A DNA stretch of 34,934 bases from Armatimonadota bacterium (lineage in GTDB: Bacteria; Sysuimicrobiota; Sysuimicrobiia; Sysuimicrobiales; Humicultoraceae): contig JBBIOM010000020.1 in assembly GCA_037443365.1 (NCBI GenBank), positions 1 through 34,934 of the forward strand, in the 5' to 3' direction. The notes under the pieces were generated by a model. That model was not told where the DNA came from, searched no databases, and saw only the letters and a program-made list of their open reading frames with translations. This document shows, piece after piece, positions 8,025 through 28,859 of the stretch. Numbering within the stretch: position 1 is the first letter of the stretch; each line of letters starts with the position of its first letter. The position numbers were made by a program, and so were the translations under genes.

Positions 8025-8035
8025 CGTGGTCCTCC

Positions 8036-8683: not shown

Positions 8684-8689
8684 GTCCGG

Positions 8690-9841: not shown

Positions 9842-9862
9842 CAGGCTCCTCCTAGTCTGGGG

Positions 9863-11323
9863 CTATCCCTTGATCACGCCTATCGGATGCATCCGCGCGA
9901 CCCGGTGGCTCAACCCGGCCGAGTGGCAGACCGCCACGACATCGGCCACGTCCTTGTAGGCCTCCGGGGCCTCTTCGGCCAGGAGGCCTCGATCCCGCGC
10001 GCGAACGAGAACGCCCGCCCGGGCGAGCTCATCGCTCACGTTCCGGCCCGCAAGCTGACGGATCGCCGCCTTGCGCCCAAGCACGCGGCCTGCGCCGTGG
10101 CACGTGGAGCCGAAGGCCTCGCGCATGGCGCCCTGCGTGCCGATGGCCACGAACGAGTACCGTCCCATGTCGCCCGGGATGAGCACCGGCTGCCCGACCT
10201 CGCGATAGCGGGCAGGAACCTCGTGGTGCCCGGCGGGAAAGGCGCGCGTGGCACCCTTGCGGTGCACGCACACGCGACGCTGCTCGCCCTCAACCTCGTG
10301 CGACTCGACCTTGGCGATGTTGTGCGCCACGTCATATACGAGGTCAAGACCCAGTCGTTCCCATGCCTTGCCAAACACACGCTCAAAGGCCTCGCGCACC
10401 CAGTGCGTTATCAGCTGCCGGTTCGCCCACGCAAAGTTGGCCGCCCCGCTCATCGCGCCGAAGTACCGCTGCCCCTCCGGGGAGCGCAGCGGCACGCATG
10501 CGAGTTGCCGGTCCACCAGGTGGATGCCGTGACGGCCCGATGCGCGCTCGCAGACGCGCAGGTAGTCGGTGCAGACCTGGTGCCCCAGGCCCCGCGACCC
10601 TGTGTGCACGAACACGAGGATCTGCCCGGGCTCACCAATCCCCAGGGCCGAGGCGGCGGACGCGTTGAATACCTGATCCACGACCTGCAGCTCCAGGAAA
10701 TGGTTCCCCGAGCCCAGCGTCCCTACCTGCCCCCGGCCGCGCTGCTTGGCCTCCGCGCTCACCGCCGCGGGATCGGCATGCTCCAGGGCCCCCCCGGCCT
10801 CGGTCACATCGAGGTCCTCGGGCACACCGTACCCGCGCGCCACTGCCCAGCGCGCGCCCTGCGACAGCACCTCGTCCACCTCACGCGTCCCGACCTTCAC
10901 CCGACCGCCCACGCCGACGCCTGAGGGCACGGCGCTGTACAGCGCGTCAACAAGGACGTCCAGTCGCGGGCGAACGTCGTCCTCGACAAGATCGGTACGT
11001 AGCAGCCTGACGCCGCAGTTGATGTCATACCCGACACCGCCGGGCGAGATGATGCCTTCCTCGAGATCAAACGCCGCCACGCCTCCAACCGGAAACCCGT
11101 AGCCCCAGTGAATATCGGGCATCGCAAGCGACCTCCCAACGATGCCCGGCAGGGTAGCCACATTGGCGACCTGCTCGACGGCCTGCTCCTCGGCCATGGC
11201 GCGCAGCATGCGCTCGTCGGCGAATACAAGACCCGGGACTCGCATGCCCTGCTTGTAGCTGGCCGGGAGCTCCCAGCGCCACTCGTCTATCTTCCTGAGA
11301 ACCTGCGTCCAGGGCGTGCCCAT
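9863..11323 (-). CDS. rtcB: RNA-splicing/repair ligase RtcB (long type)
   Basis: MPDIHWGYGFPVG, GYDINCG, GTLGSGNHF, HTGSRG, DVAHNIAK, HRKGAT, STCHGAGR, EAPEAYK. Confidence 0.96.
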   Translation of the reverse strand: MGTPWTQVLRKIDEWRWELPASYKQGMRVPGLVFADERMLRAMAEEQAVEQVANVATLPGIVGRSLAMPDIHWGYGFPVGGVAAFDLEEGIISPGGVGYDINCGVRLLRTDLVEDDVRPRLDVLVDALYSAVPSGVGVGGRVKVGTREVDEVLSQGARWAVARGYGVPEDLDVTEAGGALEHADPAAVSAEAKQRGRGQVGTLGSGNHFLELQVVDQVFNASAASALGIGEPGQILVFVHTGSRGLGHQVCTDYLRVCERASGRHGIHLVDRQLACVPLRSPEGQRYFGAMSGAANFAWANRQLITHWVREAFERVFGKAWERLGLDLVYDVAHNIAKVESHEVEGEQRRVCVHRKGATRAFPAGHHEVPARYREVGQPVLIPGDMGRYSFVAIGTQGAMREAFGSTCHGAGRVLGRKAAIRQLAGRNVSDELARAGVLVRARDRGLLAEEAPEAYKDVADVVAVCHSAGLSHRVARMHPIGVIKG

Positions 11324-11346
11324 GATTCCTCACCTGCCGCCGCAGC

Positions 11347-11379
11347 AAAGGACCCCCGCATGCGTGCCATGGGGGGTCC
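11347..11379 (-). terminator. Putative intrinsic terminator/attenuator between nfu and rtcB
   Basis: Minus-strand GGACCCCCCATG-gcacg-CATGCGGGGGTCC stem followed by TTT; the U-tract is short. Confidence 0.55.
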
Positions 11380-11401
11380 GCTTGAGCGATCCGAAGGAAG
11401 G

Positions 11402-11665
11402 CTAGAAGGGAACCGCTTCCACCCCACGGATCTCCGGGATCTCCTGCTTCACCATCCGCTCGATACCCATCTTCAGTGTCATCATCGCGTGCATGCAACC
11501 CACGCAGGCGCCCGTCAAGCGGACGCGAACGACCCCGTCGGTCACGTCCACCAGCTGAACATCGCCGCCGTCGCCCTGAATGTAGGGGCGGATGGTGTCA
11601 AGCACCCGCTCGACCCTGCTCTGCAGGCTCGCTGCGGGCTGCTCCGTGCTCGTCTGATCTGTCAT
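11402..11665 (-). CDS. NifU C-terminal / Nfu-type Fe-S carrier protein
   Basis: IRPYIQGDGGDV and GACVGC (CxxC); ATG at 11665 with GGAGG SD preferred over 11683. Confidence 0.9.
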   Translation of the reverse strand: MTDQTSTEQPAASLQSRVERVLDTIRPYIQGDGGDVQLVDVTDGVVRVRLTGACVGCMHAMMTLKMGIERMVKQEIPEIRGVEAVPF

Positions 11666-11697
11666 GACTTCCTCCAGTGGCACTGTTGACGCGCCTA

Positions 11698-12138
11698 CTA
11701 CTCAATCATAGCCCTGCGAGGCCTGCCGCGCAAGGCGCGCGGCACGGGTCTGGGATGATCGCGCACGGCGTCCACCGCGCAGAGAAACCCGAACGCCTCC
11801 CTGCCTGCCAGGAACTGGTGGGGCGTCCCGGATGGAATCAGCATGAAGTCCAGCGGCCTCACCCTGTGCAGCCTGTCGCCGATTCGCACGCGACCCCGGC
11901 CGCGCAGCACCAGCACCGCGTGCGCGTGACGGTGCTGCTCGAGCGACGAGTAGCCACCGGGCGCGATCTCGAAGTAGCGCAGGTGAAACGCCGTCGGCTC
12001 CTCCCGCCCGCCCACCAGCACGAACCGCAGGACGTCATGCCAGGCCAGCGGACCGCGGGACGAGGCCTTGTAAGGAACAGATGGGAATCCCTTCCAGCGG
12101 AACCGCGCCGGGTCGAAACGCGCAATCACGGGCTTCAC
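11698..12138 (-). CDS. Cupin, resembling 1-methylthio-xylulose-5-phosphate methylsulfurylase family
   Basis: FRWKG..YK, LRYFEIAPGGYSSLEQHRHAH, PHQF, FGFLCAVD..RDHP; GTGA overlap with upstream gene. Confidence 0.75.
   Translation of the reverse strand: MKPVIARFDPARFRWKGFPSVPYKASSRGPLAWHDVLRFVLVGGREEPTAFHLRYFEIAPGGYSSLEQHRHAHAVLVLRGRGRVRIGDRLHRVRPLDFMLIPSGTPHQFLAGREAFGFLCAVDAVRDHPRPVPRALRGRPRRAMIE
11705..11733 (-). promoter_or_regulatory. Internal sigma70-type promoter for nfu, inside the cupin 3' end
   Basis: TTGCGC (11733-11728), 17 nt, TATGAT (11710-11705). Confidence 0.55.
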
Positions 12139-13175
12139 GGCCGCACCACCACCTTGAGCGCGGAGCCGGCTTCGCGCATGAGCGAGTAGCCCCGACCCAC
12201 CTCCGAGAGCGGAATCCGATGCGTCACCAGAGGCTCGACCTGCAGCCCCGCGGTGAGCATGCGCAGCGCCTCGCGCGTCTCATCCGGCCCCGCTGAGTAG
12301 GCCGTCGTGACCGTGACCTCCTTGAAGTACAGGTCGTGAGCCGGCAGCGGCCATCTCGCCTCGGGCGGCGTGGGGGCGAAGATCACGAGCGTCCCTCCGG
12401 GTGCCACGCTGCGCAGCCCTTCCTCCAAGGCCTCCACCGCGCCCGGGCCGACTATCACGACGTCCGCACCCGCGCCCCCGGTGGCCTCGCGTACGACTTC
12501 GTGCAGGGACTTGCGCGAGGTATCCACGGCTACATCGGCGTACCGCGCGGCCGTCGCCGCGCGGAGAGGATTGAGATCGGCGGCGACGAGCACCGCGGGG
12601 GCGGCCATCGCCCGAAGGGCCAAGAGGTGCAGCAGCCCCATGACACCCATCCCAATCACCAGCACGCGATCGCCGTCGCGGAGCCGCGCGCGGCGTATGG
12701 ACTTGACCACGCAGGCCAGCGGTTCCACGAATACGGCGGCCTCGTCGGACAGTTCCGCGGGCAGCCGCAGGGTGTCTACGGCGACGGCAGGGGCCTGCGC
12801 CAGGGCCAGGGTCGCCAGGCCGCCGGGTATCAGTCGTCGGGGCGCCCAGGCCGGGCAGTGCACGTGGTCCCCGCGGCGGCAGGCCCGGCAGGCCATGCAG
12901 GGAGCGTGGTGGTGGACGAAGACCCGCTCGCCCGGGCTGAAAGCCGCGCCTGGGCCGGCTTCGAGCACCACGCCCACCGGTTCGTGGCCCAGCGGTACCG
13001 GGGCCTTGCGGGCCAGGTACCAGTCCATGATCTCGCCGGTGCACAGCCCGCATGCACTGATGCGCAGCAGCAGCTCGCCGGGGCCAGGAGGCGGAACCTC
13101 GACCTCCTCCAGCCGCAGATCTCCTGGGCCGTGGCATATCGCGGCCAGCGCCACATTCGGACGCGCCGCGGTCAT
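12135..13175 (-). CDS. Zn-dependent polyol (sorbitol/iditol-like) dehydrogenase, MDR family
   Basis: CGLCTGE, GHEPVG, HHHAPCMACRAC..C, EPLACV, GMGVMG; ATGA overlap with upstream paralog. Confidence 0.85.
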   Translation of the reverse strand: MTAARPNVALAAICHGPGDLRLEEVEVPPPGPGELLLRISACGLCTGEIMDWYLARKAPVPLGHEPVGVVLEAGPGAAFSPGERVFVHHHAPCMACRACRRGDHVHCPAWAPRRLIPGGLATLALAQAPAVAVDTLRLPAELSDEAAVFVEPLACVVKSIRRARLRDGDRVLVIGMGVMGLLHLLALRAMAAPAVLVAADLNPLRAATAARYADVAVDTSRKSLHEVVREATGGAGADVVIVGPGAVEALEEGLRSVAPGGTLVIFAPTPPEARWPLPAHDLYFKEVTVTTAYSAGPDETREALRMLTAGLQVEPLVTHRIPLSEVGRGYSLMREAGSALKVVVRP

Positions 13176-14200
13176 GCCTCGTCCCCGGGCATCACCGCGT
13201 ACTTGGTCCCGATCCTGCGGTCCAGGTCCTTGAACACCTCGGCTATGGCCGCGAGCGGCCGGGCCGCGGTGATCATGTCATAGGGCCTCACCGCGCCTGT
13301 GGCCAGGAGGTCGAGCGCAGAGCGGACGTCCTCGGTGCGGTAGTGAAAGGTGCTGACGAGGTCCACCTCGCCGTAGTGGATGCGCGTGGCGTCGAACTCC
13401 GCACGGCTCTTGCTCGGAAGCCCTCCGAACAGGAGGACGCGGCCTCCTGGGGCGGACCAGGCGGGCGCCGCGCTCCAGACCTCGGGAGAGCCCGTGCACT
13501 CGATGATCAGGTCAGGACCTCCGCCGGTGGCGGCGCGCAGTGCCTGGCCGACGTCTCCGGTGGAGGAATCCAGCGTGCGGGCGGCCCCTGCCCTCTCGGC
13601 CAGTTCCAGCCCTGCGGGACGACGTCCGACCGCGACCACCTCGTGCCCCCGGCGCCGCGCCTCGTGGATCTGCAGGAGGCCTATCGATCCCAGGCCGACC
13701 ACGGCCACACGCGCGCCGGGCGCGGGATCCAGCCGGTCCCAGGCATGCACGACGCAGGCCAGGGGCTCGAGGAACGCGGCCTCGATGTAGGAAAGACCCG
13801 GGGGCTTGGGAAACACGTGCCGGCGCACGACGCGCGCCGGCAGGCGGAGGAAGTCACCGTATGCGCCGAGCGCGATCTCATCGAAGAGGGTGGCGCACAG
13901 GTTCTCGCGGCCGCGCTGGCACGGCGTGCACCCCCCGCACCCGGCCGTGTGCACGAACGCCACGGGCTGACCCACCGAGATCCCGGAGACGCCCTCACCC
14001 ACAGCGGCGATATCCCCGGCCGCCTCGTGTCCAAATGGGCCGAAGGCCACCTTGGGGTGCCCGCGGCGGTAGGTCTTGAGATCGGTCCCGCAGGTGAGCG
14101 CGGCCCGAACGCGCACGACCACCTCGCCGGGGCCGGGCGATGGTACGGGCGCCTCCACCAGGTCGAGCTCGCGGGGAGCGCGCAGGATCGCCTGTCGCAT
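13172..14200 (-). CDS. Zn-dependent polyol (sorbitol/iditol-like) dehydrogenase, MDR family
   Basis: ALTCGTDLK, GHEAAG, CGGCTPC..C, EPLACV, GLGSIG. Confidence 0.85.
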   Translation of the reverse strand: MRQAILRAPRELDLVEAPVPSPGPGEVVVRVRAALTCGTDLKTYRRGHPKVAFGPFGHEAAGDIAAVGEGVSGISVGQPVAFVHTAGCGGCTPCQRGRENLCATLFDEIALGAYGDFLRLPARVVRRHVFPKPPGLSYIEAAFLEPLACVVHAWDRLDPAPGARVAVVGLGSIGLLQIHEARRRGHEVVAVGRRPAGLELAERAGAARTLDSSTGDVGQALRAATGGGPDLIIECTGSPEVWSAAPAWSAPGGRVLLFGGLPSKSRAEFDATRIHYGEVDLVSTFHYRTEDVRSALDLLATGAVRPYDMITAARPLAAIAEVFKDLDRRIGTKYAVMPGDEA

Positions 14201-14221
14201 GCGGCAGCCGGCCCGCTCAGG

Positions 14222-15397
14222 CTATCCGGCCGCGGGGCCGGATTCGGTTGGCAGGGCCAGATTCGTCCACGCGATGATCCCGCCCGCCAGGTTGTAGGCC
14301 TGCGTGTAGCCTGCCTTGCGCAACGCTTCCACCACGCCAGCACTCCGGCTTCCAGAGGAGCACTGCACGATCACGGGCCGGTCGGGGTCGATCTCGGACG
14401 CGCGCCTTGGCACCTCGGATACGGGCATGAGCCTGGCGCCCGGTATGCGCAGCGCAGCCCATTCCCATGGCTCGCGCACGTCCACCAACTGGGCTCCCTG
14501 CGCAAGCATCGCGCTGGCCTCGTGTGGATCCACCTCGGCGCCTGGCGCGGAGACGATCGCATGCGCGGGCTCCCGGGGCCGGCCCGGCAGGCCGCAGAAC
14601 TGCTCGTAATCTATCAACGCGGTGATCGTCGGGCTATCTCCACAGACCGGGCACTGCCGGTTCCGGTTCCAGCGGACGGTGCGCGTCTCCCCGGAAAGGG
14701 CGTCCACGAGGAGCAGGCGGTTGGCCAGGCCTTCGCCGGCGCGAAGCAGCAGCTTCACCGCCTCGATGGCCTGGATGGTGCCCAACTGTCCTGCCACTGC
14801 GCCGATGACGCCGGCCTCGGCGCAGGAGGGCACCGCGCCCGGAGGAGGCGGGGACGGAAACAGGCAGCGGTAGCAGCCGCGTCCGGGCAGGTAGACCGTG
14901 GCCTGGCCCTCCCACCGCAGGACGCTGGCGTCAACCAGCGGCCGACGGAGCAGCACGCAAGCGTCGTTCACCAGGTAGCGCGTGGGGAAGTTGTCGCTGC
15001 AGTTGACCACCACATCGAACTGCCCGATGATCTCGAGGGCGTTGGACGAAGACAGCACAACCGGGAACATCAGCACGGCGACGTCCGGGTTGATCTCCCC
15101 GAGGGTGCGCGCGGCGGACTCGGTCTTGGGAGTACCGACATCGCGAGCCCGGTGCAGGATCTGCCTGTGGAGGTTGGACAGTTCCACGCGGTCGCCGTCC
15201 ACGATCCCGATGGTGCCGACCCCGGCCGCTGCCAGGTAGAGGGCCGCGGGCGAGCCCAGTCCGCCCGCGCCCACCACAAGCACCCTGGAATCGAGCAGGC
15301 GGCGCTGGCCTGCGACGCCCATCTCCTGGAGGACCAGCTGCCGCGAGTAGCGGTCAAGCTGCTCTCTACTGAGGAAGGGCGCGGCGCCGGGGGTCAT
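14222..15397 (-). CDS. moeB: MoeB/ThiF adenylyltransferase with C-terminal rhodanese domain (MoeZ/MoeBR type)
   Basis: RYSRQ, GAGGLG, SNLHRQ, DNFPTRY, CYRC and CPVC Zn motifs, DVRE..E and rhodanese loop CSSGSRS; ATGA overlap with lipA stop gives start 15397. Confidence 0.92.
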   Translation of the reverse strand: MTPGAAPFLSREQLDRYSRQLVLQEMGVAGQRRLLDSRVLVVGAGGLGSPAALYLAAAGVGTIGIVDGDRVELSNLHRQILHRARDVGTPKTESAARTLGEINPDVAVLMFPVVLSSSNALEIIGQFDVVVNCSDNFPTRYLVNDACVLLRRPLVDASVLRWEGQATVYLPGRGCYRCLFPSPPPPGAVPSCAEAGVIGAVAGQLGTIQAIEAVKLLLRAGEGLANRLLLVDALSGETRTVRWNRNRQCPVCGDSPTITALIDYEQFCGLPGRPREPAHAIVSAPGAEVDPHEASAMLAQGAQLVDVREPWEWAALRIPGARLMPVSEVPRRASEIDPDRPVIVQCSSGSRSAGVVEALRKAGYTQAYNLAGGIIAWTNLALPTESGPAAG

Positions 15398-16311
15398 CCT
15401 GCCCACCGCGCTGCTTGCGCCTGCGCCTCAGCCCTGTAGGATGAGCGCACGAGCGGCCCTGCCTCAACGTACCTGAATCCGCGCCGCAGGCCCTCCTCGC
15501 GCAGGGCGGCGAACTCCTCTGGGGTGTAGTAGCGAGCGACCGGAAGATAGCCGGGGCCTGGCCGCAGGTACTGACCCAGGGTCAGCACATCGCAGTCCGC
15601 CGCCCGGAGGTCGTCCATGGCTTCCAGCAGGTCTTCCTCGCTCTCTCCCATCCCAAGAATGACACCACTCTTGGTAAGTGAACTGTACCCCCATTCCTTG
15701 CACCGCGCCAGCAGTTCGATGGATCGGGCGTAGTCGCCGCCCGGGCGCACGCTCCCGAACACCCTGCGGGCCGCCTCCAGGTTGTGCCCCATGATCTCCG
15801 GGCCGGCATCCAGGACCGTGCGCAGCGCTGCGGGATCGCCCTGGAAGTCGGGAACGAGCACCTCCAGGGTGCAGCCGGGAAGCCTCCGGCGAATGGCGCG
15901 AACCGTCTCGGCGTAGATACCGGAGCCGCCGTCTGGCAGATCGTCACGCGTCACCGAGGTCACGACCGCGTGGCGCAGACCCATGGCAGCGGCCGCGTCG
16001 GCGACGCGCGCCGGCTCACTCGGATCAGGGGTGCCCGGCCTCCCGCCTGCCACCGCGCAGTACCCGCAGCGGCGCGTGCAGGCCTCGCCGAGGATCAGGA
16101 ACGTGGCGGTGCGGCGGCCCCAGCACTCGCCGATGTTGGGGCAGCGGGCCTCCTCACAGACGGTGTGTATCCCGCCGCGGCGCATGATGCGGACCAGGTC
16201 GGCGTAGTTATCGCCCCCTGGCAGGCGAACCCGAAGCCAGGCGGGCCGCCGGCCATCACCGGGGCCTGGGCCGTCCGGCTCAGGCGTGCAGGGCTCTTCC
16301 CAGCGCGTCAA
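15394..16311 (-). CDS. lipA: Lipoyl synthase
   Basis: CEEARCPNIGEC, radical-SAM CTRRCGYC, TSVTRDDL, GQYL, VRSSY; TTG start with GGGAGG SD. Confidence 0.96.
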   Translation of the reverse strand: MTRWEEPCTPEPDGPGPGDGRRPAWLRVRLPGGDNYADLVRIMRRGGIHTVCEEARCPNIGECWGRRTATFLILGEACTRRCGYCAVAGGRPGTPDPSEPARVADAAAAMGLRHAVVTSVTRDDLPDGGSGIYAETVRAIRRRLPGCTLEVLVPDFQGDPAALRTVLDAGPEIMGHNLEAARRVFGSVRPGGDYARSIELLARCKEWGYSSLTKSGVILGMGESEEDLLEAMDDLRAADCDVLTLGQYLRPGPGYLPVARYYTPEEFAALREEGLRRGFRYVEAGPLVRSSYRAEAQAQAARWAG

Positions 16312-17680
16312 GTGCCGCCTCCCGCAGCGCCTCGGACAGGGTGGGATGCGCGTGCACCGCGCTGCCCACCTCCGCCACCGTTCCCTCCAGGTGCCGCGCC
16401 ATCACACCTTCCGCCAGCAGCTCTGTAACATAGGGGCCCAGCATGTGTATGCCCAGGATCTCGCCGGTCTGGCGGTCCGCCACAACCTTGACGAAGCCGT
16501 CGCGCTCGCCCCCAATTGACGCCTTGCTGTTGGCCTGGAAGGCGAACCGCCCGACCCTTGTCTCGTGTCCTGACTCCTGCGCCTGCTGCTCGGACAACCC
16601 CATCGAGGCGACCTGGGGGATGGAGAATGTGGGCCGCGGAACGGCCTGGTAGTCCAGGGGCCTGCTCTCGATCCCGGCGATCGTCTCGACCGCGTGGATG
16701 GCCTCGTCGGAGGCAACATGTGCCAGCCGGTAGGGCCTGGCGATCACGTCTCCGGCAGCGAACACCCCTGGCGCCGAGGTGCGCAGGTGGTCATCCACCA
16801 CGACGGCTCCGTTCTGGGTCTCGACGCCTGCCGCCTCCAGGCCCAGGCCATCCGTGGCAGGAGCCCGTCCGATCGCCACCAGGAGGTAGTCGGCCTCCAC
16901 GCGGATCGATTCCGGGCCTCGGCTCAGCGTGATGGCCAGCCCGTCACCGGAGCGAGCAACGCCACTGGCCGTAGCGCCGGTGTAGACCTTCATGCCCCTC
17001 CGCGTGAACAGCCGCTCCATGGTCCGCCCTATCTCGGGATCCTCCAGCGGGAGCAGGGTCGGGAGAAGTTCGATCAGTGTAACCTCGCTGCCCAGCGCGG
17101 AGAACAAACTCGCGAACTCCACGCCGATGGCGCCGCCACCCAGGATCGCCATCGTCCGGGGCAATTCGGCAAGCGTCAGCGCGCCGGTGCTGTCGAGCAC
17201 GCGCTCGTTGTCAGGGACGATCCCCGGAATGCTCCTGGGGGTGGAACCGGTCGCCAGGAGCACATGTTTGGCATCGAGCTCGGGCCGTGAGCCATCGGGG
17301 AACGCCACGCCGGCGCGGGCGGGGCCCAGCAGGCTGCCGTCACCCTCGAAGACCTCAATCTTGTGCTTGCGCATCAGAGACTGAACGCCTTTGTGCAGGC
17401 CTTCGACCACGGTCGCCTTGCGCTGACTGAGACGCGCGTAGTCCACGCGCACCGGTCCGGTCTCGACGCCCATCGCCTGGGCCCTCTTCAACTTCTCGAC
17501 CAGGTCGGCGGCGTGCAGCAGCACCTTGGTGGGGACGCAGCCGTAGTGAAGACAGACGCCGCCCAGCTTGTGGCGCTCGACGACCGCAACGCGCAGCCCG
17601 AGTTGGGCCGCCCGGATCGCGCCTACGTACCCGGCCGGGCCGCCGCCGATGATTACAAGGTCGTAAGGATTGGGCTTCAC
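16280..17680 (-). CDS. lpdA: Dihydrolipoamide dehydrogenase
   Basis: GGGPAG FAD loop, GGVCLHYGCVPTK redox disulfide, GGGAIGVE NAD loop, HAHPTLSE. Confidence 0.95.
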   Translation of the reverse strand: MKPNPYDLVIIGGGPAGYVGAIRAAQLGLRVAVVERHKLGGVCLHYGCVPTKVLLHAADLVEKLKRAQAMGVETGPVRVDYARLSQRKATVVEGLHKGVQSLMRKHKIEVFEGDGSLLGPARAGVAFPDGSRPELDAKHVLLATGSTPRSIPGIVPDNERVLDSTGALTLAELPRTMAILGGGAIGVEFASLFSALGSEVTLIELLPTLLPLEDPEIGRTMERLFTRRGMKVYTGATASGVARSGDGLAITLSRGPESIRVEADYLLVAIGRAPATDGLGLEAAGVETQNGAVVVDDHLRTSAPGVFAAGDVIARPYRLAHVASDEAIHAVETIAGIESRPLDYQAVPRPTFSIPQVASMGLSEQQAQESGHETRVGRFAFQANSKASIGGERDGFVKVVADRQTGEILGIHMLGPYVTELLAEGVMARHLEGTVAEVGSAVHAHPTLSEALREAALDALGRALHA

Positions 17681-17720: not shown

Positions 17721-18230
17721 TCAGGACGAGGCGGCCTCGCGACGGCGCTGCGCCACCAGATCCGCCAGCCATCGCGGATCCTCGTAGACGTAGTCCTTGC
17801 GCAGGGGGTGACCGACCCAGTCGTCGGTCATCATGATCCGCCGGAGATCGGGGTGTCCGTCGAATGCGACTCCGAACAGGTCGTAGGTTTCCCGCTCGTG
17901 CCAGTTCGCCGCGCTCCAAATGCCGCTGACGCTGGGCACCCGAGGATCGTCGCGCGGAACCCGTACCTTCAGCAGCAGTTCGTGACGAGCGGTCATCGAA
18001 AAGAGGTGGTAGAGCACCTCGATCTGTCCGGATGAGGGGCGGTCCACGCCGGTCACAAACGAGCAGTAGTCAAGCAGGAAGGGCGGCTCATCGCGCAGGA
18101 CGCCGCAGATCTCCAGCAGACGCTCGGCGGGCACCGCGGCTCCAGGCACGTGATGCACCGGCTCCTCGTGCGGGAAAGGCTCCACCTCGGGGAAACGCTC
18201 CACAAGTTGCCGCACAAGCTCCCAGCTCAC
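17721..18230 (-). CDS. nuoC: NADH:quinone oxidoreductase subunit C
   Basis: VTGVD, ANWHERETYDLFGV.F.GHPDLRRI, GHPLRKDY. Confidence 0.92.
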   Translation of the reverse strand: MSWELVRQLVERFPEVEPFPHEEPVHHVPGAAVPAERLLEICGVLRDEPPFLLDYCSFVTGVDRPSSGQIEVLYHLFSMTARHELLLKVRVPRDDPRVPSVSGIWSAANWHERETYDLFGVAFDGHPDLRRIMMTDDWVGHPLRKDYVYEDPRWLADLVAQRRREAASS

Positions 18231-18712
18231 GCCCGCCGCCCCGATGAGAAGATCCCGCGCGCCGCCGGTTCCTTCGAGTCCGCCCGGTGCAGGTCAGCGA
18301 GATCGTAGAGCAACCTGCTCCGGTCGCGAGTGCTGGCCTCATAGCAGGGCACGAACACGATCGCCTCTGTGGGACAGACCTCCACGCACAGCCCGCAGAA
18401 GCAGCACTTGTCCATCTCGATGTCGAAGCGGGTGAGATAGCGTTCCTTCCCCTTGCCGGACGCCTCGATGTGAATGCAGCGATCGGGGCAGACGCGCTCG
18501 CACTGGAAGCAGATTATGCACTTGTCCTTCCCGGTCGCGGGATCTATGGGCAGGGCCAGCAGGCCGTGCCAGTTCGGGGAGACCTCCAGCCGCTCAAGCG
18601 GATACTTGACGGTGTTCTTCCTGGCCCCCAGGGCCCGCAGCGTCACCCGAAGCCCGGTCGCCAGGCCTACCACCGAGTCCCATGCGCGTACTGCCAGTTC
18701 AGCCATGCTCAC
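18227..18712 (-). CDS. nuoI: NADH:quinone oxidoreductase subunit I (2x[4Fe-4S])
   Basis: TVKYP, CIICFQCERVCP and CCFCGLCVEVCP; start 18712 (GTG) or 18706 (ATG). Confidence 0.9.
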   Translation of the reverse strand: MSMAELAVRAWDSVVGLATGLRVTLRALGARKNTVKYPLERLEVSPNWHGLLALPIDPATGKDKCIICFQCERVCPDRCIHIEASGKGKERYLTRFDIEMDKCCFCGLCVEVCPTEAIVFVPCYEASTRDRSRLLYDLADLHRADSKEPAARGIFSSGRRA

Positions 18713-18713
18713 C

Positions 18714-19820
18714 CTACCGATCCACGTCCGAGAGGACGATGTCCGCGGTTCCCAGGATGGCGATGACGTCCGCCACCTTCCAGCCGCGCATCACCTCGCA
18801 GAGCGCGTACAGGTTGGCGAACGAGGGCGCACGAACCTTGACCCGGTAGGGCCGGTCGGCCCCCTCGCTCACAATGTGGACGCCGAGGTCCCCGCGGGGG
18901 GACTCGGTGCGCGCGTAGATCTCGCCCTGCGGCAGCTTGACCGCCACAGGAACCTTGGCGCGTACATCTCCTGCCGGGAGGCGGTCTATCGCCTGCCGGA
19001 CTATGCGCACGCTCTGCCGCATCTCCTCCATGCGCACGAGGTACCGGGCGAAGCAGTCGCCCGCCTCCTGTGTTGGAACGTCGAACTCCACCTCAGCGTA
19101 GGCCTCGTACGGGATGGCCTTCCGGACGTCAAAAGCCACCCCTGAGGCGCGGGCCACGGGGCCGCAGGCGCCCATGTTGATGGCGGCGTCCCTTTGCAGG
19201 ACGCCCACACCCTGCGCGCGGGCCAGGAAGATCGGGTTGCCGGTCAGCAGGTCGCTGTACTCCTGCAGGTGATCGGGGAACTCGTCGCAGAACGCGAGGA
19301 CCCGATCTGTCCATCCCCCGGGTAGATCGCGGGAAACGCCGCCAGGGCGGAAGTAGACGTAGTGCAGCCGCCCCCCCGTGACCTGCTCGAACAGGTCCAG
19401 GAGGCGCTCACGCTCCCTGAAGCAGTACAGGAAGACCGTCGTGGCCCCAAGGTCGTTCGCCCAGGTCCCCAGCCACACCAGGTGGCTCGAGAGCCGCTGG
19501 AGTTCCAGCATGATCGTCCGGATCCATCGCGCGCGGGGGGGAACCTCGATCCCGCCGAGGCGCTCCACTGCCAGCAGGTAGGCTTCCTCGTTGGCCAGGG
19601 CCGCCAGGTAGTCCAGACCGCGGTCTGCGAGGGCCACGTTCTGCAGGTAGGTCCGGTGCTCCATCATCTTCTCTACGGAGGAGTGCAGGTACCCGATGTA
19701 CGGCCTGACGTCCACGATGTTCTCGCCGTCGAGGGTCACCAGCAGGCGCAGCACCCCGTGCATGCTGGGGTGCTGAGGGCCCATGTTGAGCATCAGTTCC
19801 TCGGTGCGAAGCGCCATCAC
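18714..19820 (-). CDS. nuoD: NADH:quinone oxidoreductase subunit D
   Basis: NMGPQHPSMHGVLRL, IGYLH, ESPRG, RAPSF, C-terminal DVDR; no NiFe CxxC pairs. Confidence 0.93.
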   Translation of the reverse strand: MMALRTEELMLNMGPQHPSMHGVLRLLVTLDGENIVDVRPYIGYLHSSVEKMMEHRTYLQNVALADRGLDYLAALANEEAYLLAVERLGGIEVPPRARWIRTIMLELQRLSSHLVWLGTWANDLGATTVFLYCFRERERLLDLFEQVTGGRLHYVYFRPGGVSRDLPGGWTDRVLAFCDEFPDHLQEYSDLLTGNPIFLARAQGVGVLQRDAAINMGACGPVARASGVAFDVRKAIPYEAYAEVEFDVPTQEAGDCFARYLVRMEEMRQSVRIVRQAIDRLPAGDVRAKVPVAVKLPQGEIYARTESPRGDLGVHIVSEGADRPYRVKVRAPSFANLYALCEVMRGWKVADVIAILGTADIVLSDVDR

Positions 19821-19833
19821 GCCGCCCCCCGCC

Positions 19834-20397
19834 TCAGGCCCCTTGCGCCGCAGCGCGGCGGAGGAACGGTCCGGACTTGATCTTCTCCTGGAGCCTGAGG
19901 ATCCCTTCGATCAGGGCCTCGGGCCGCGGCGGGCAGCCGGGGATGTACACGTCCACGGGGATGATCTCGTCAATGCCCTTGAGAATCGAGTAGTTGTCGT
20001 GATAGAAGGGGCCGCCGCAGGTCGCGCAGGATCCCATTGAGATCACGTACTTGGGCTCGGGCATCTGCTCCCACAGCCGGCGCGTGATCGGCGCCATCTT
20101 GAGCGTGCAGCGTCCCGCCACGATCATCAGGTCGGCCTGGCGCGGGGTCGCCCGGGGCATGACACCCATGCGGTCGAGATCGAACCGGCCGGCGAAGGCG
20201 GCCATCATCTCGATCGCGCAGCACGCCAGCCCAAAGCCCAGCGGCCACAGGCTGGCCGCGCGGCTCCAGTTGAGCAGCGCATCGACCTTCGTGAGGATGA
20301 CACCGCCCACCGGCAGCCGGTCAAGCGCGGCGATCGTCTTCTCTACGGACTCGGGTCTCGACAAAGAAGCGGTGTCCCGCCGTGGCGGGGTGGTCAT
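19834..20397 (-). CDS. nuoB: NADH:quinone oxidoreductase subunit B
   Basis: [37 protein letters not shown] at 20397 with GGAGGAG SD. Confidence 0.95.
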
Positions 20398-20471
20398 GCG
20401 CTCCTCCCCAGGGAGATTGCTGGCGTGGTTGCGCCCCTGGGCGCCGATCCAGGGCCGCGAGAACCTTACCC

Positions 20472-20500
20472 ATGGTAGCACCGGAGGTGATGACCGTCAA
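20472..20500 (-). promoter_or_regulatory. Sigma70-type promoter for nuoB-D-I-C-lpdA-lipA operon
   Basis: TTGACG (20500-20495), 17 nt, TACCAT (20477-20472) with extended -10 TG. Confidence 0.7.
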
Positions 20501-22209: not shown

Positions 22210-23178
22210 ATGGCGAGCGCTCCGAGACCGAACGCGGCACTGAAGGCCACGAGGGACGCCTACGGAGAGGCCATCGTGGAGGTGGCCCGGGACAACCCGC
22301 GCATTGTGGCGCTCACAGGGGACCTGCGCGACTCCAACCGGCTGGAGGCGTTCGCACAGGAGTACCCGGATCGCTTCTTCGAGTGCGGCATCGCCGAGCA
22401 GAACATGATCGGCGTGGCGGCAGGCCTGGCCGCCTGCGGTAAGATCCCCTTCGCGAGTTCGTTCGCCGCGTTCTCACCGGGCAGGTGCTACGACCAGATC
22501 AGGGTGCTGGTCGCGCAGCCCGGCCTCAACGTGAAGCTCGTCAGCACTCACGGCGGCCTGACCGTGGGCGAGGACGGAATGAGCGCGCAGGCAGTGGAAG
22601 AGCTCGCGATGATGCGCGCGCTCGCCAACATGACCGTGATCGTCCCGGCCGACGCGGTGGAGACAGCGCAGGCAATCCACGCGGCGGCCGAGCACAACGG
22701 CCCGGTGTACGTGCGGCTCGGCCGGTCGGGCGTGCCCGTTCTGTTCGATGAGTCCTACCGGTTCTCGATCGGGGCGGCCCCCCTACTGCGTGACGGAGGC
22801 GACGTGACGCTGGCGGCCTGCGGAATCATGGTGGCCGAGGCGCTGGAAGCCGCGCGCCTGCTGGAAGTGGAGGGCATCCGGGCCCGTGTGCTCAACGTCT
22901 CGACGCTCAAGCCCCTCGACGAGGAGTCGCTCCTTCGGGCCGCGCGCGAGACCGGCGCAATCGTCACCGCGGAGGAGCACACGGTCCACGGAGGGCTGGG
23001 AGGGGCCGTCTGCGAGGTGGTCGCGGCAGGTCACCCGGTGGCCGTCGAGCGTGTGGGGATATGGGACAGGTTCGGCGAGTCCGGACCGCCAGGGCCGCTG
23101 ATGCAGGCCTACGGCCTCACCGCGGAGGAGATCGCCGCGGCCGCGCGGCGTGCGCTGAGACGCAAGCGGACCTCCTAG
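22210..23178 (+). CDS. Transketolase, C-terminal subunit (split type)
   Basis: TRDAYG, GIAEQNM, YDQIR, GEDGMSAQ, GPVYVRL, EEH..GGLG. Confidence 0.92.
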   Translation: MASAPRPNAALKATRDAYGEAIVEVARDNPRIVALTGDLRDSNRLEAFAQEYPDRFFECGIAEQNMIGVAAGLAACGKIPFASSFAAFSPGRCYDQIRVLVAQPGLNVKLVSTHGGLTVGEDGMSAQAVEELAMMRALANMTVIVPADAVETAQAIHAAAEHNGPVYVRLGRSGVPVLFDESYRFSIGAAPLLRDGGDVTLAACGIMVAEALEAARLLEVEGIRARVLNVSTLKPLDEESLLRAARETGAIVTAEEHTVHGGLGGAVCEVVAAGHPVAVERVGIWDRFGESGPPGPLMQAYGLTAEEIAAAARRALRRKRTS

Positions 23179-23600
23179 CGGGCCGCGTGCTCGTCAAGGC
23201 CCTGCTCAAGCGAGACCCACGGCAGCGTCGCGCACTTGACCCGCACCGGGAACCGCCGGACACCCTGCAGCGCGGCCAGATCGCCCATCTCCTCCCCGGA
23301 TCCCTCGCCGCGCATCAAGTCCTTGAACTTCCCGACCGCGGCGCGCACCTCGTCCAGCGTCCGGCCCTTGATGGCCTCGGTCATCATCGAGGCCGAGGCC
23401 TGGCTGATCGCACACCCGCGCCCTTCGAAGCGCACGTCCGCGACCCGGCCGTCCCTCAGGTTCAGGTACAGCGTGAGCTCGTCCCCGCAGAGCGGGTTGG
23501 CGCCTTCCACGGATATGTCGCTGGGCTCCAGCCTGCCGCGGTTGCGGGGATGGGCGTGGTGGTCGAGGATCACCTCGCGGTACAGATCATCCAGTTCCAT
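23175..23600 (-). CDS. sufU: SufU sulfur-transfer protein
   Basis: LYREVILDH, NPLCGD, GCAISQAS, RVKCA. Confidence 0.95.
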   Translation of the reverse strand: MELDDLYREVILDHHAHPRNRGRLEPSDISVEGANPLCGDELTLYLNLRDGRVADVRFEGRGCAISQASASMMTEAIKGRTLDEVRAAVGKFKDLMRGEGSGEEMGDLAALQGVRRFPVRVKCATLPWVSLEQGLDEHAAR

Positions 23601-24852
23601 GCGCGACCTCCTTCGTGCTCAAGGAGGCCCGCGCAAACAGGCGGTGCACCTTGATCAGTCCGGCGACCAGGGCGTCCACATCCGACCTCAGGCTGTACAG
23701 GTGGAAGCTGGCGCGAGCCGAGGCCGGTATCCCGAACCGGCGGTGCAGCGGCTCGGCGCAGTGGTGCCCGGCGCGTACGGCGATGCCCTCGCCGTCGAGA
23801 ACCTGGGCGATGTCGTGAGGGTGGACGCCCTCCAGCGTGAACGCGATCGCGCCGCCCCGATCCGCGGCCGTCTTGGGCCCGTAGATCACGAGCCCGGGAA
23901 CCTCGCTTAGCCGCCCCAGCGCGTAGTCAATCAGGTCGCGCTCATGCGCGCTGATAGCGTCCATGCCGGTCTTCCGCATGTAGTCGACCGCTGCGCCAAG
24001 GCCGATCGCGCCCGCCACGTTGGGAGTCCCGGCTTCGAACCTGTGGGGCGGGGCCTTGTAGGTGGACCGGTCGAGTCCGACGCTCATGATCATCTCGCCC
24101 CCACCATGGTAGGGCGGCATCGCCTCGAGCAGGGAGTAGCGGGCCCACAGCCCGCCTATGCCCATCGGGCCCAGCATCTTGTGGCCCGAGAACGCCAGGA
24201 AGTCGGCGCCCAGCGCGCCCACGTCCACGCTCTGGTGTGGGACGCTCTGGGCCGCGTCAACGAGAACCAGCGCGCCCGCCTGGTGCGCCCGATCCGCGAT
24301 GCGCCTGATCGGGTTGATCGTGCCAAGCACGTTGGACTGGTGCGTCAGTCCGACCAACTTCGGCCGGTCCTCCAGCAGACGCTCGAATGCATCGAGATCG
24401 AGCCGGCCCTCGTCCGTGACGGGGACGTACCTCAAGACGGCGCCACGCTCGGCGGCCAGCATCTGCCAGGGCACGATGTTGCTGTGATGCTCCATCTCGG
24501 TCAGGAGGATCTCGTCACCGGCCCCGATGTTGGCGCGGCCCCATGCCGCGGCCACAAGGTTGATGGCCTCCGTGGTGCCCCGGGTGAATACGATCTCCTC
24601 GCTCCCTGCTGCGCCCAGAAATGAGGCCAGATTTGCCCGTGCCTCCTCGTACCTGGCGGTGGCCTCCTCGGCCAGCCAGTAGATGCCGCGGTGGACGTTG
24701 GCGTTGTAGGAGCGATAGTACTCCGATATCGCGTCCAACACTTGCTGCGGCTTCTGCGAAGTCGCCGCGCTGTCGAGGTAGATCAGGGTCTTCCCGTCCG
24801 CCTTCGGGCGCAGGAGGGGAAAATCGTCACGCGTGCCTGCGGCCAGAGCCAC
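23587..24852 (-). CDS. sufS: SufS cysteine desulfurase
   Basis: YLDSAATSQKP, EHHSN, FSGHKM (PLP Lys), RAGHHCA. Confidence 0.96.
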   Translation of the reverse strand: MALAAGTRDDFPLLRPKADGKTLIYLDSAATSQKPQQVLDAISEYYRSYNANVHRGIYWLAEEATARYEEARANLASFLGAAGSEEIVFTRGTTEAINLVAAAWGRANIGAGDEILLTEMEHHSNIVPWQMLAAERGAVLRYVPVTDEGRLDLDAFERLLEDRPKLVGLTHQSNVLGTINPIRRIADRAHQAGALVLVDAAQSVPHQSVDVGALGADFLAFSGHKMLGPMGIGGLWARYSLLEAMPPYHGGGEMIMSVGLDRSTYKAPPHRFEAGTPNVAGAIGLGAAVDYMRKTGMDAISAHERDLIDYALGRLSEVPGLVIYGPKTAADRGGAIAFTLEGVHPHDIAQVLDGEGIAVRAGHHCAEPLHRRFGIPASARASFHLYSLRSDVDALVAGLIKVHRLFARASLSTKEVAHGTG

Positions 24853-24868
24853 TGGCGCACCTCCGATG

Positions 24869-25213
24869 CTAGCGCTTGTGCGGCATTCCCTGACCGGGTC
24901 TGCCTTCCAGCGAGATCAGGATCGCGTCGCCTTCCACCTTCACGGGGTACGTGGCCACCGGCCTGACGGCAGGCAGCGAAAGCACACGCCCCGAGGGCAG
25001 GTGGAACCGCGATCCGTGCCTGGGACACACCAGGATCTCGCCCATCAAGGGACCTTCCGCGAGGGACTGGTCCTCGTGGGTGCAGTTGTCATCCACCGCG
25101 TAGATCGCGCCGCCCACGTTCGCCACCGCGATCTTGCGCCCGGCGGCCTCCACGCGCTTCGCGCTGCCAGGCGGGATCTCATGGAGTGTCGCAACCCGGA
25201 TGAACTCGTCCAT
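24869..25213 (-). CDS. Rieske-type [2Fe-2S] ferredoxin
   Basis: CTHE and CPRHGS.F Rieske boxes. Confidence 0.92.
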   Translation of the reverse strand: MDEFIRVATLHEIPPGSAKRVEAAGRKIAVANVGGAIYAVDDNCTHEDQSLAEGPLMGEILVCPRHGSRFHLPSGRVLSLPAVRPVATYPVKVEGDAILISLEGRPGQGMPHKR

Positions 25214-25214
25214 T

Positions 25215-26531
25215 CTAGATCATCTTCTCCGCCACCCTGGCCCTCAGGTAGGATCGCACCCTCGCTCCGGGAATGCGGTCGAACACGTCGGCGAAGAAGC
25301 CCTCGACAATCATGAACGCGGCCCGCTTGCGCGGGATTCCCCGGCTCATCAAGTAGAAGACCTGCTCGTCGTCCAGGTGGCTCGTGGCCGACCCGTGGGT
25401 GCACCGGAGGTCGTCGGCCATGATCTCCAGCATCGGGATGCTGTCGGACCGCGCGCCCCGCGACAGGATCAGGTTGCGGTTCACCTGGAACGCGTTGGTC
25501 TTCTGCGCACCGGGCTCCACCCTGATCAGGCCCGAGAACACAGACCGGGCCGAGTCCTTCACCGCGCCCCGGTAGAGGAGGTCGCTGGAGGCGCCCGGCG
25601 CCCTGTGATCCTGCAGCGCGTGGAGGTCCACGCGTTGAGCGCCGGTCCCGAAGTAGACCCCGAGCATCTCCGAGGAGGCCCCGGCCCCCAGCAGATGCGA
25701 CTCCACGTCCACCTTGACTAGCCCGCCGCCCAGCACCACGACCAGGCTGCGCAGGGAAGCGCCCCGATCCACGTGGCCTCGGATCAGACTCCCCACCTCC
25801 CACATCGCCGGACCCCACTCCTGTACGGCCGCGTACTGGACCTGCGCCCCGGTGCGCACGAACAACTCGACCGCGCCCGAGCACAGCGTGCGCGGGCCGT
25901 CGGTCGCCGAGGCAAACAGCTCAACCAGCGTCACCCGGCTCTCCTCCTCGGCGACGAGGAGGGTGTGGGGGAAGATGGCGCATCCGCGGGCGCCCAGCCA
26001 GACCTGGCTCACCAGCGGGAGGCTGACCTCCACGCCCCTGGGTACGTACACGAACGTGCCGCCCGTCCAGAGCGCGGCGTGCAGCGAGCGGAAACGGTGC
26101 TCTCCGGGCCAGGAGTCGGTGGCCATCAGGACGTCGCGCACCAGGTCCGGGTGGTCCCTGACCGCGGTGGCCAGGTCCAGGAAGAGCACTCCCTGCTGGA
26201 CCGCGGAGGCCTCCAACTCGCTTCCCGCCATCCCGCCGTCCAGATGCGTGATCAGGCCGGAGCGCTGCTCCGCCTCCCTTGCAATCGTGCCGATGAACCG
26301 GGGGCGGGATGCGCCCTCGGTGCCGCTCGGCAAGCAGAACTCGCCTGGGTCCATGGTGCCGAGATCAGTCCGGCGCCAGGTCTGCGGGTGCGTGACGGCC
26401 GGCATGGGAAGACGCTCGTACGCGTCCCAGGCGGCCATCCGGCGGGCGTGGACCCAATCCGGCTCCCGCATCCTGGCGCTCTGCGCCTCGATGGTCGCGC
26501 GGGTCAGACCGCCCGGGGAGCCCCTAGCCAA
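25215..26531 (-). CDS. sufD: Fe-S assembly protein SufD
   Basis: WRRTD, IPMLEI..DDLRCTHGSA, FYLMSRGI; overlaps sufB stop. Confidence 0.92.
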   Translation of the reverse strand: MARGSPGGLTRATIEAQSARMREPDWVHARRMAAWDAYERLPMPAVTHPQTWRRTDLGTMDPGEFCLPSGTEGASRPRFIGTIAREAEQRSGLITHLDGGMAGSELEASAVQQGVLFLDLATAVRDHPDLVRDVLMATDSWPGEHRFRSLHAALWTGGTFVYVPRGVEVSLPLVSQVWLGARGCAIFPHTLLVAEEESRVTLVELFASATDGPRTLCSGAVELFVRTGAQVQYAAVQEWGPAMWEVGSLIRGHVDRGASLRSLVVVLGGGLVKVDVESHLLGAGASSEMLGVYFGTGAQRVDLHALQDHRAPGASSDLLYRGAVKDSARSVFSGLIRVEPGAQKTNAFQVNRNLILSRGARSDSIPMLEIMADDLRCTHGSATSHLDDEQVFYLMSRGIPRKRAAFMIVEGFFADVFDRIPGARVRSYLRARVAEKMI

Positions 26532-27930
26532 CCGATCCCTCCATCTCCAGCGCTATCAGCCGGTTCATCTCCACCGCGTACTCGAGCGGTAGCTCCTTGA
26601 CGACTGGCTCGATGAACCCCCGCACGATCATGTTCATGGCCTCGCCGGCGCTGACCCCGCGGCTCATCAGGTAGAAGAGCTGATCGTCGCTCACCTTGGA
26701 GACGGTCGCCTCGTGCACTACCGAGGCGTCCATTTCCTCGATCTCCATGTACGGGTACGTGTCGGACCGGCTGTGGTCATCGAGGATCAGGGCGTCACAG
26801 CGCACGGCGCTCTTGCTGCGCACCGCGCCAGGATACACCTTCACGAGCCCGCGATACCCTGCCCGCCCCCCCTCCCGGGCGATCGACTTGCTCACGACCG
26901 ACGACTGGGTGTCTGGCGCGGCGTGAACCACCTTGGCACCGGGATCCTGGTGTTGCCCCTTCCCGGCGAAGACCACCGAGAGGATCTCGGCCCTGGCGCC
27001 GGGCTCGACCATGTACACGCTCGGGTACTTCATCGTCACCTTGGAACCGATGTTCCCGTCAACCCACTCCATCGTGGCGTCCCTATAGGCCACAGCGCGC
27101 TTGGTCACCAGGTTGTAGGTGTTCGTGGACCAGTTCTGGATGGTCGTGTAGCGGCAGCGCGCGCCTTCCTTGACGACGATCTCCACCACGGCGCTGTGCA
27201 GGAGGTCCGTGGTGTAGATCGGAGCAGTGCACCCCTCGACGTAGTGCACGTAGGAGCCGGGCTCGCAGATGATCATCGTCCGTTCGAACTGGCCCGCCTT
27301 CTCGGCGTTGATGCGGAAGTAGGCCTGCAGCGGGATCTCCACGCGCACGCCGGCGGGCACGTAGATGAACGAGCCCCCCGACCACACCGCCGTGTTGAGC
27401 GCGGCCAGCTTGTTGTCCTCCGGCGGGACGACCGTACCGAAATACTCACGCACGATGTCGGGGTGTTCCCGCAGCGCCGAGTCCGTGTCCAGGAAGATGA
27501 CCCCGAGCCCTTCCCACTCCTCCTTGAGGTTATGGTACACGGACTCGGATTCGTACTGCGCCCCCACCCCGGCCAGGTACTTCTTCTCCGCCTCGGGAAT
27601 GCCAAGCCGGTCGAAGGTGCGCTTGATGCCCTCGGGCACGTCTTCCCAGGTGTGGCCCTTGCCGTCGGTCGGCTTCAGATAGTAGTAGATGTCGTTGAAG
27701 TCAATCCGGGTCAGGTCCGCGCCCCACGTGGGCAGCGGGCGCCGCGTGAAGTGCTCGAATGAATGCAGGCGGTAGGCCCGCATCCACTCGGGCTCGCCCT
27801 TCATCGAGGAGATCATCTCCACGATCTCGCGATCGAGGCCCTTGCGAGCCTTGAAGACGTACTTCTCGGGATCTCGAAACCCCCACTTGTAGTGGTCGAG
27901 TTCCACACCCAGCGGGTTGGTCGCCGCCAT
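26524..27930 (-). CDS. sufB: Fe-S assembly protein SufB
   Basis: AQYESE, WSGGSFIY, GQFERT, EGCTAP, HEATVSK, ELPLEYAVE, MEGSVG. Confidence 0.97.
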   Translation of the reverse strand: MAATNPLGVELDHYKWGFRDPEKYVFKARKGLDREIVEMISSMKGEPEWMRAYRLHSFEHFTRRPLPTWGADLTRIDFNDIYYYLKPTDGKGHTWEDVPEGIKRTFDRLGIPEAEKKYLAGVGAQYESESVYHNLKEEWEGLGVIFLDTDSALREHPDIVREYFGTVVPPEDNKLAALNTAVWSGGSFIYVPAGVRVEIPLQAYFRINAEKAGQFERTMIICEPGSYVHYVEGCTAPIYTTDLLHSAVVEIVVKEGARCRYTTIQNWSTNTYNLVTKRAVAYRDATMEWVDGNIGSKVTMKYPSVYMVEPGARAEILSVVFAGKGQHQDPGAKVVHAAPDTQSSVVSKSIAREGGRAGYRGLVKVYPGAVRSKSAVRCDALILDDHSRSDTYPYMEIEEMDASVVHEATVSKVSDDQLFYLMSRGVSAGEAMNMIVRGFIEPVVKELPLEYAVEMNRLIALEMEGSVG

Positions 27931-27947
27931 CGGGCCCTCCCCGGAAC

Positions 27948-28778
27948 CTAGTGAACGACCCAGAAGACCTTGCCGGCGCGCCTGACCGCGCCGTCTTCCC
28001 GGACCTCCGAAGCCACCACCTCGAACTGCTCCCGGATGGCCTCGTAGCCGCTCTGCTCGAGCTCCTCGGCAAGAGACGGCCCGCCCGAGACGACGATGCG
28101 ACCGTCATACATGATGTGCACGAAGTGCGGACGCAGGAACTGCAGTATGCGCGAGTAGTGCGTGATCAGGAGCACACCCATGCCGCCCTGGGCCTCGTCG
28201 TACATCCTGAGGATGCCGTCGGCGACCACCTTGAGGGAGTCGATGTCCAGGCCGGAGTCGGTCTCGTCCATGAATGCGATCTCGGGCTCGAGCATCGCCA
28301 TCTGGAGGATCTCGGCCCGCTTCTTCTCGCCTCCGGAGAACCCGTCGTTGACGTACCGGCCGGGCACCTCCGGGGCGATCTTGAGCGCTTCCATCTTCGA
28401 TCGCAGCAGCTTCTGGAACTCGCCGACCGGCATCAGCTCCTGCTTGTATCCCCTGCGTGCCGAGACCGCCGTACGCAGGAAGCTGGCCATCGTCACGCCC
28501 GGAATGCTCACGGGGTACTGGAACGCGATGAAGAGCCCTTTCCTGGCGCGCTCGTCCGGGGGCATCGCCAGCAGGTCTTCGCCCTTGTACAGGACCTCGC
28601 CGCGCGTCACCTGGTAGAGGGGATTGCCCATGAGCACATTGGCCAGGGTGCTCTTGCCCGATCCGTTGGGCCCCATGACGGCGTGGATCTCTCCGCCGCT
28701 CATCTCCAGATTGACGCCCTTGAGGATGACCTTGTCGTCAACCTGCACGTGGAGGTTGCGGATCTCCAGATCTGCCAT
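27948..28778 (-). CDS. sufC: Fe-S assembly ATPase SufC
   Basis: GPNGSGKST, FQYP, FSGGEKKR, DETDSGLDID, ITHY; ATG at 28778 with AAGGAG SD. Confidence 0.96.
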   Translation of the reverse strand: MADLEIRNLHVQVDDKVILKGVNLEMSGGEIHAVMGPNGSGKSTLANVLMGNPLYQVTRGEVLYKGEDLLAMPPDERARKGLFIAFQYPVSIPGVTMASFLRTAVSARRGYKQELMPVGEFQKLLRSKMEALKIAPEVPGRYVNDGFSGGEKKRAEILQMAMLEPEIAFMDETDSGLDIDSLKVVADGILRMYDEAQGGMGVLLITHYSRILQFLRPHFVHIMYDGRIVVSGGPSLAEELEQSGYEAIREQFEVVASEVREDGAVRRAGKVFWVVH

Positions 28779-28830
28779 GCCCTTCTCCTTCCGACGCCGG
28801 GCCCGGCCCGCCGGGCGCACACCATCGCAC

Positions 28831-28859
28831 ATTCTAGACTTGTTTGGTCAAGTTTTCAA
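28831..28859 (-). promoter_or_regulatory. suf operon sigma70 promoter with overlapping IscR/Rrf2-like operator
   Basis: TTGAAA (28859-28854), 17 nt, TAGAAT (28836-28831); the dyad ATTCTAGAC-N7-GTCAAGTTT (28831-28855) overlaps it. Confidence 0.8.

Follow-up and report, generated by a model that had tools for sequence, protein, structure and literature searches.

The nuoB-D-I-C genes described here very probably encode the soluble half of a second complex I-like enzyme, which assembles with a membrane half encoded elsewhere in the genome. The assignment draws on gene content, the exact complementarity of the two gene sets, their co-occurrence across the phylum, and the intact Fe-S ligands and quinone-site residues of the soluble subunits. 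To judge by the sequences, the lone Q-module appears to be the product of an operon split in a second, 11-subunit complex and not an orphan. The known metabolism of a widespread, uncultured phylum of soils and hot springs gains a core energy-conserving enzyme, and the case cautions that an isolated Q-module operon may be one half of a split complex. The features are listed below; positions refer to the window (the whole 34,934-nt stretch of DNA analysed) unless the source genome (G000) and contig are named.

20472..20500, minus strand: sigma70-type promoter, TTGACG-17-TACCAT, with TG before the -10 hexamer
19834..20397, minus strand: nuoB2, 187 aa from the ATG at 20397; N2 ligands (CC..C..C) kept; Thermus-type Arg (AGR)
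18714..19820, minus strand: nuoD2, 367-368 aa, short type; quinone-site H17/H21/Y71/T119/D123 kept; without NiFe cysteines
18227..18712, minus strand: nuoI2; eight Cys for two [4Fe-4S] clusters; stop codon overlapping the start of nuoC
17721..18230, minus strand: nuoC2, 169 aa; last in the module instead of second
16280..17680, minus strand: lpdA (dihydrolipoyl dehydrogenase), a neighbour 40 nt downstream of the module
G000:C6:33073-40242: second membrane arm, nuoA-H-J-K-L-M-N, without B, C, D and I; directly upstream of A/V-type ATPase genes

The soluble module and its neighbours

A profile search within the window bears out the earlier note's description of four peripheral subunits in the order nuoB-D-I-C. 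The genes are intact ORFs on the minus strand, and the window has no nuoA, E, F, G, H or J-N in their vicinity. NuoB, NuoC and NuoD score above the NCBIfam Nuo cut-offs, NuoI falls slightly below its own (109.1 bits vs 113.05 for TIGR01971), and Pfam also assigns NuoB/D/I/C. The start given for nuoB by the ORF finder, GTG 20481, lies inside the promoter; the ATG at 20397 is preceded by a GGAGGAG ribosome site. The N-terminal stretch of NuoC2 varies in length among relatives (G014, G024, G022), with most matches beginning at residue 30-33. The sigma70-like promoter that the earlier note assigned to the module is a 9/12 match and by itself at chance level (1 found vs 0.4 ± 0.7 in shuffles), but it gains substance from the conservation of both hexamers in 4/4 aligned same-genus relatives; they are not conserved in the single other-genus sequence aligned.

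The module is flanked by a YceI gene upstream and by lpdA, lipA and moeB downstream. Genes for Fe-S and sulfur handling surround it more widely, with a suf operon containing a Rieske ferredoxin upstream (window 23175-28832) and lipA, moeB, nifU-like and Mrp/ApbC-type genes on the downstream side (window 6885-15406); the suf linkage is seen again in G024 and G026. The lpdA gene is probably co-transcribed with the module in the source genome and is not judged part of the complex. Its candidacy as a flavin input module was rejected as plain synteny: among the genomes inspected it touches nuoC only in the source genome, 14 of the 26 relatives with a match have it 0.6-7 kb downstream, G027 and G030 have it at a great distance, and it accompanies E1 2-oxoacid dehydrogenase genes in 3/3 relatives with annotated downstream genes.

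Two other neighbours were considered as electron donors. A sulfite-oxidase-family molybdoenzyme is encoded within ~2 kb downstream of nuoC2 in 19/30 relatives (in G014 at L115:9444-11027). It was rejected as an obligate partner: among the 31 genomes, only the source genome lacks a family match, and the protein, which carries hydrophobic segments at its N-terminus and an RR motif, looks exported. A second Rieske-type ferredoxin, distinct from the suf-operon copy, is encoded directly upstream of nuoB2 in 7/30 relatives (G014, L115:6102-6515; G011, G012, G013, G016, G017 and G029) and is absent from that position in the source genome. As a dedicated donor it was set aside as a minor lead.

A membrane arm without its own Q-module

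The source genome (2.2 Mb, 97.7% complete) contains three NuoD-like loci: a canonical nuoA-N operon (contig C5), a true group 4 hydrogenase with both NiFe motifs, RICGIC and DPCFSC (C2), and the window locus. Family searches also return two NuoA, three NuoH-family (two of them Nuo-type) and nine antiporter-family genes. There are two L-M-N triplets, and two antiporter genes on contig C43 belong to a separate Mrp operon. The description of the module as a second one is upheld, given a complete main nuoA-N operon whose NuoD is only ~50% identical to NuoD2.

The second arm on C6 and the window cluster lie on different contigs and together supply exactly 11 complex I subunits, without the NADH module; neither cluster contains NuoE, NuoF or NuoG. 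NuoF-like copies occur in the main operon and in a formate dehydrogenase cluster, where a second NuoE/F-like pair of this genome stands beside a formate dehydrogenase-type subunit, and NuoG has one match. A NuoG match is found in 30/31 genomes, in most relatives at one locus in the main operon. In G029 a second NuoG match accompanies a partial NuoH on a separate contig (G029:C178:1151-2755), either a duplication or a binning artefact. The C6 cluster encodes both NuoA and NuoJ, subunits described as absent from hydrogenases (PMC3144371).

Several proposals of the earlier note are modified by these genes. Its term stand-alone is apt for the window but not for the genome, where the C6 cluster is found. 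Docking on an arm encoded elsewhere survives in that a separate arm exists, but this arm is a dedicated second cluster, and the word exchangeable is unsupported. The note had also named a plain operon split, with these as the genome's only nuoBCDI genes, as the outcome that would overturn its reading; the finding comes close to this, in that the other genes of the second complex lie in a separate cluster, but the main operon has a complete set of its own.

Iron-sulfur and quinone sites

NuoD2 is as the earlier note portrayed it, with QHPSMH, HSSVEK and DRGLDY, a one-residue insertion before the Tyr, and no NiFe cysteine motifs. The insertion is confirmed by alignment with Thermus Nqo4 and four NdhH chains. 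RGLDYL and DIVLSD occupy what we take to be the positions equivalent to the two NiFe CxxC motifs. Residues matching H34, H38, R84, Y87, T135, D139 and H169 of Thermus Nqo4 are all kept. When the window protein was aligned with sequences from 16 of the relatives' 26 loci and with 8 further NuoD proteins, HSS[VL]EK, DRG[ML]DY and L[SA]DVD(R) were found in 17/17 NuoD2 orthologues and 0/8 of the others. The predicted fold superposes on complex I NuoD with a TM of 0.88-0.91; the pLDDT of the model drops around the odd motifs, at residues 15-21 and 45-47 and at the C-terminus.

The earlier note regarded HSSVEK as atypical, and the sequence does differ. The N2-site Arg of the HRGxE motif is, however, also missing from the main NuoD of the source genome and from that of Thermus, in which it has been swapped to NuoB and the NuoB Arg substitutes for it (PMC8042128). 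The compensating Thermus-type Arg is present in 15/15 aligned NuoB2 and in the main NuoB. The HSS of NuoD2 thus appears to match the Thermus-type swap and looks less odd than first thought, because Thermus and the main NuoD share the loss and both NuoB copies carry the replacement. The invariant insertion before the Tyr is accounted for neither by the Arg swap nor by the 11-subunit model; it is a natural variant beside the quinone-binding Tyr, a position at the heart of the mechanism, and could be of interest to those who study complex I.

The eight cluster cysteines of NuoI2 are retained in 15/15 aligned orthologues. An extra Cys beyond the cluster ligands, C79, occurs in all 15 as well. A second Cys beyond the ligands, in the SCAxCGG motif of NuoB, is common to NuoB2 and the main NuoB.

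Conservation within the phylum

Among named records the nearest are Ca. Fervidifonticultor and Ca. Calidihabitans, both assigned by NCBI to Ca. Sysuimicrobiota. A NuoD2 orthologue is present in 28/30 relatives, two of these partial at contig ends, and the B-D-I-C order, the conservation of which the earlier note suggested examining, is kept in 26/26 relatives' loci that cover the module. NuoH2 is present in 29/30 relatives, with NuoA2 immediately before it in 29/29. Three antiporter subunits follow NuoH2 in 5/5 genomes checked, and ATPase genes follow the second arm in 4/4 annotated relatives (5/5 genomes counting the source). NuoH2 proteins from family f2 are longer (G025, L125:10275-11474, with 399 aa; also G019 and G028) and give a two-piece match that suggests an insertion close to the C-terminus.

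Of the 94 phylum genomes searched, 85 have NuoD2, 90 have NuoH2 and 82 have both; a single genome, 68% complete, has neither. The E-value limits (1e-120, 1e-100) were chosen after the relatives' searches to shut out main-operon copies. Among the 54 high-quality genomes, NuoD2 is found in 53 and NuoH2 in 54. The tallies include two unpublished genomes, G015 and G045, on which the conclusions do not depend (the order is kept in 25/25 without G015). These counts speak for retention and not for co-evolution, because kin are not independent. The sole genome with both halves on one contig is G014, with 1.73 Mb between them; the other assemblies are too fragmented to give the distance.

Relatives outside the phylum and origin of the split

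At the edge of the phylum, protein matches drop from at least 66% to at most 61% identity, with few in between. Short-type NuoD is also found outside, in a small sample of six annotated loci out of 80 listed. Five of these six are canonical in order, with H immediately following D and E-F-G absent; the sixth reads A-B-C-D and then continues with other genes, and none of the six has the B-D-I-C order. Most simply, this suggests that the layout arose from an ordinary A-B-C-D-H-I-J-K-L-M-N operon, which the four soluble genes left before the phylum diversified. Pairwise identities to outside 11-subunit NuoH, 42-49% for NuoH2 and 44-52% for NuoH1, do not separate the two NuoH types; they bring NuoH2 no closer than NuoH1 to these enzymes and do not pair the two halves, which speaks against the reading of one split complex.

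Electron donor, direction of flow and competing readings

Reduced ferredoxin would give its electrons to the second complex at NuoI, and from there they would pass through the two [4Fe-4S] clusters and N2 to menaquinone. The complex would pump protons without an NADH module, and NADH would be handled by the canonical 14-subunit complex. This mechanism as a whole, for which we infer the donor and the direction, is moderately likely. The source genome has two small ferredoxins and menA/menB/menH; a search for the futalosine pathway gave no match. Genes for 2-oxoacid:ferredoxin oxidoreductases occur in 31/31 genomes, but also in 10/14 control genomes, and hence lend weak support. For an enzyme of this sort in Desulfitobacterium, ferredoxin has been proposed as the shuttle (PMC11238625), and a published survey describes no fixed partner for the 11-subunit class (PMC3144371). 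Among the 30 relatives, no electron-carrier gene is constantly linked to nuoB-D-I-C. The donor of 11-subunit complexes is an old question that this module does not make easier to test, and a ferredoxin:menaquinone enzyme leaves both the invariant insertion by the Tyr and a long NuoL2 helix unexplained.

That helix bears on a reading in which the same 11-subunit complex runs mainly in reverse, with pmf driving electrons from menaquinol (supplied, for example, by sulfide:quinone oxidoreductase) to ferredoxin for carbon fixation. On the usual redox potentials, four protons are marginal for this transfer. NuoL2 (G000:C6:35268-37238; L113:9269-11239) has a 25-26 residue helix extension, as in the 2M complexes proposed for reverse transport (PMC9040806), and the second arm adjoins ATPase genes in all five genomes noted above. 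The extension is, however, present in 4/5 phylum NuoL2 aligned, missing from that of G026 and found in an unrelated WOR-3 NuoL, and 6/6 arms checked have a single NuoM. Carriage of sqr is reported for 109 phylum genomes and autotrophy for 3 of 5 families in a description of the phylum (PMC11604079), but the complex is retained in every family searched. Predominantly reverse flow is accordingly judged unlikely. A bolder possibility, equally doubtful, is that Sysuimicrobiota have as a core trait a second complex I whose N2/quinone site is remodelled (the insertion, HSS and L[SA]DVDR) and which combines a 2M-type NuoL strap with a single NuoM. Such an enzyme could be tuned to run from menaquinol to ferredoxin or use some other low-potential carrier, and regulation could fall on the soluble module, which has a promoter of its own.

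There is only a small chance that the complex is a second NADH:quinone isoenzyme, for which the main operon would lend NuoEFG or the formate dehydrogenase cluster its NuoEF-like pair. The genome does encode NuoE, F and G as well as the extra NuoE/F-like pair, but in alignment a 25-residue segment shared by the main NuoD and Thermus Nqo4 is missing from NuoD2, whose nearest relatives outside the phylum belong to operons lacking E-F-G. The missing segment is presumably the part that faces or contacts NuoG.

Both readings offered by the earlier note, an exchangeable or a soluble module, are unlikely. A Q-module that swaps onto the main membrane arm would fit a set of genes with its own promoter, placed apart from any arm, and it is by inference that the two halves are paired here. 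Still, a second arm without a Q-module of its own is kept in 90/94 genomes, and two Q-modules with two arms need no swap, which makes this a very improbable arrangement. A soluble Fe-S oxidoreductase with a non-quinone acceptor can be dismissed almost entirely: invariant changes at the N2/quinone site in all 17 aligned orthologues might hint at one, but the Thermus quinone-site counterparts are all present, the NuoD2 model retains the complex I fold, and the second arm would be left an orphan.

Comparison with known systems

Three related enzyme classes were considered and set aside. A group 4 [NiFe] hydrogenase (Hyc/Hyf/Ech/Mbh) is contradicted by the absence of the two CxxC NiFe motifs from NuoD2. 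For F420H2 dehydrogenase (Fpo), the FpoD model gives 375.6 bits vs a cut-off of 600, below the NuoD models. For the membrane-bound sulfane reductase MBX/MBS, the match to 6u8y_L, presumably the MBS large subunit, has an E-value of 3e-73 vs 3.5e-117 for Nqo4, and the Mrp operon is separate, on C43. Literature searches found no report of the gene order nuoBDIC and no paper treating CSP1-3, complex I and nuo together. The main texts of the two papers describing the phylum contain no mention of nuo genes, which their supplements may list (PMC11604079, PMC11962464).

The partner arm resembles 2M complex I in its NuoL lateral-helix extension, ~26 residues in that enzyme (PMC9040806, citing Chadwick et al. 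2018), but the second nuoM of the 2M type is absent, and three antiporter subunits are found in 6/6 second arms. A closer parallel in layout is found in Bdellovibrionota, where a membrane-only nuoAHJKLMN cluster likewise occupies a conserved site beside another, complete complex I; the phylum is a different one, and the likeness rests on the membrane cluster, as the published description does not give the order of the soluble genes (PMC13147790).

Thermus thermophilus complex I provides the best PDB sequence match to NuoD2 (Nqo4; 2fug and related entries, E 3.5e-117) and shares the transfer of the N2-site Arg from NuoD to NuoB (PMC8042128). It differs in its NADH module, its long NuoD, and HTG and RMDY where NuoD2 has HSS and RGLDY. 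The NDH-1 of cyanobacteria and chloroplasts is ferredoxin-driven. Its NdhH/J/K/I module (PDB 6hum) is the second-best match for NuoD2 and NuoC2 and also lacks an NADH module; NdhH, however, keeps HRG, and the acceptor here would be menaquinone.

The closest counterpart is 11-subunit complex I, with the same 11 subunits, no NuoEFG, no NiFe ligands and, as surveyed, no fixed donor gene. Complexes of this class are widespread, complex I genes are frequently divided among two or three clusters, and in Bacillus the operon adjoins the ATP synthase genes (PMC3144371). Unlike in that class, the split here is exact, between soluble B-D-I-C and membrane A-H-J-K-L-M-N with nuoC last, the enzyme coexists with a full 14-subunit complex throughout the phylum, and an insertion precedes the quinone-site Tyr. 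The enzyme is thus of a known kind, and what is peculiar to this lineage is its gene order and quinone-site signature.
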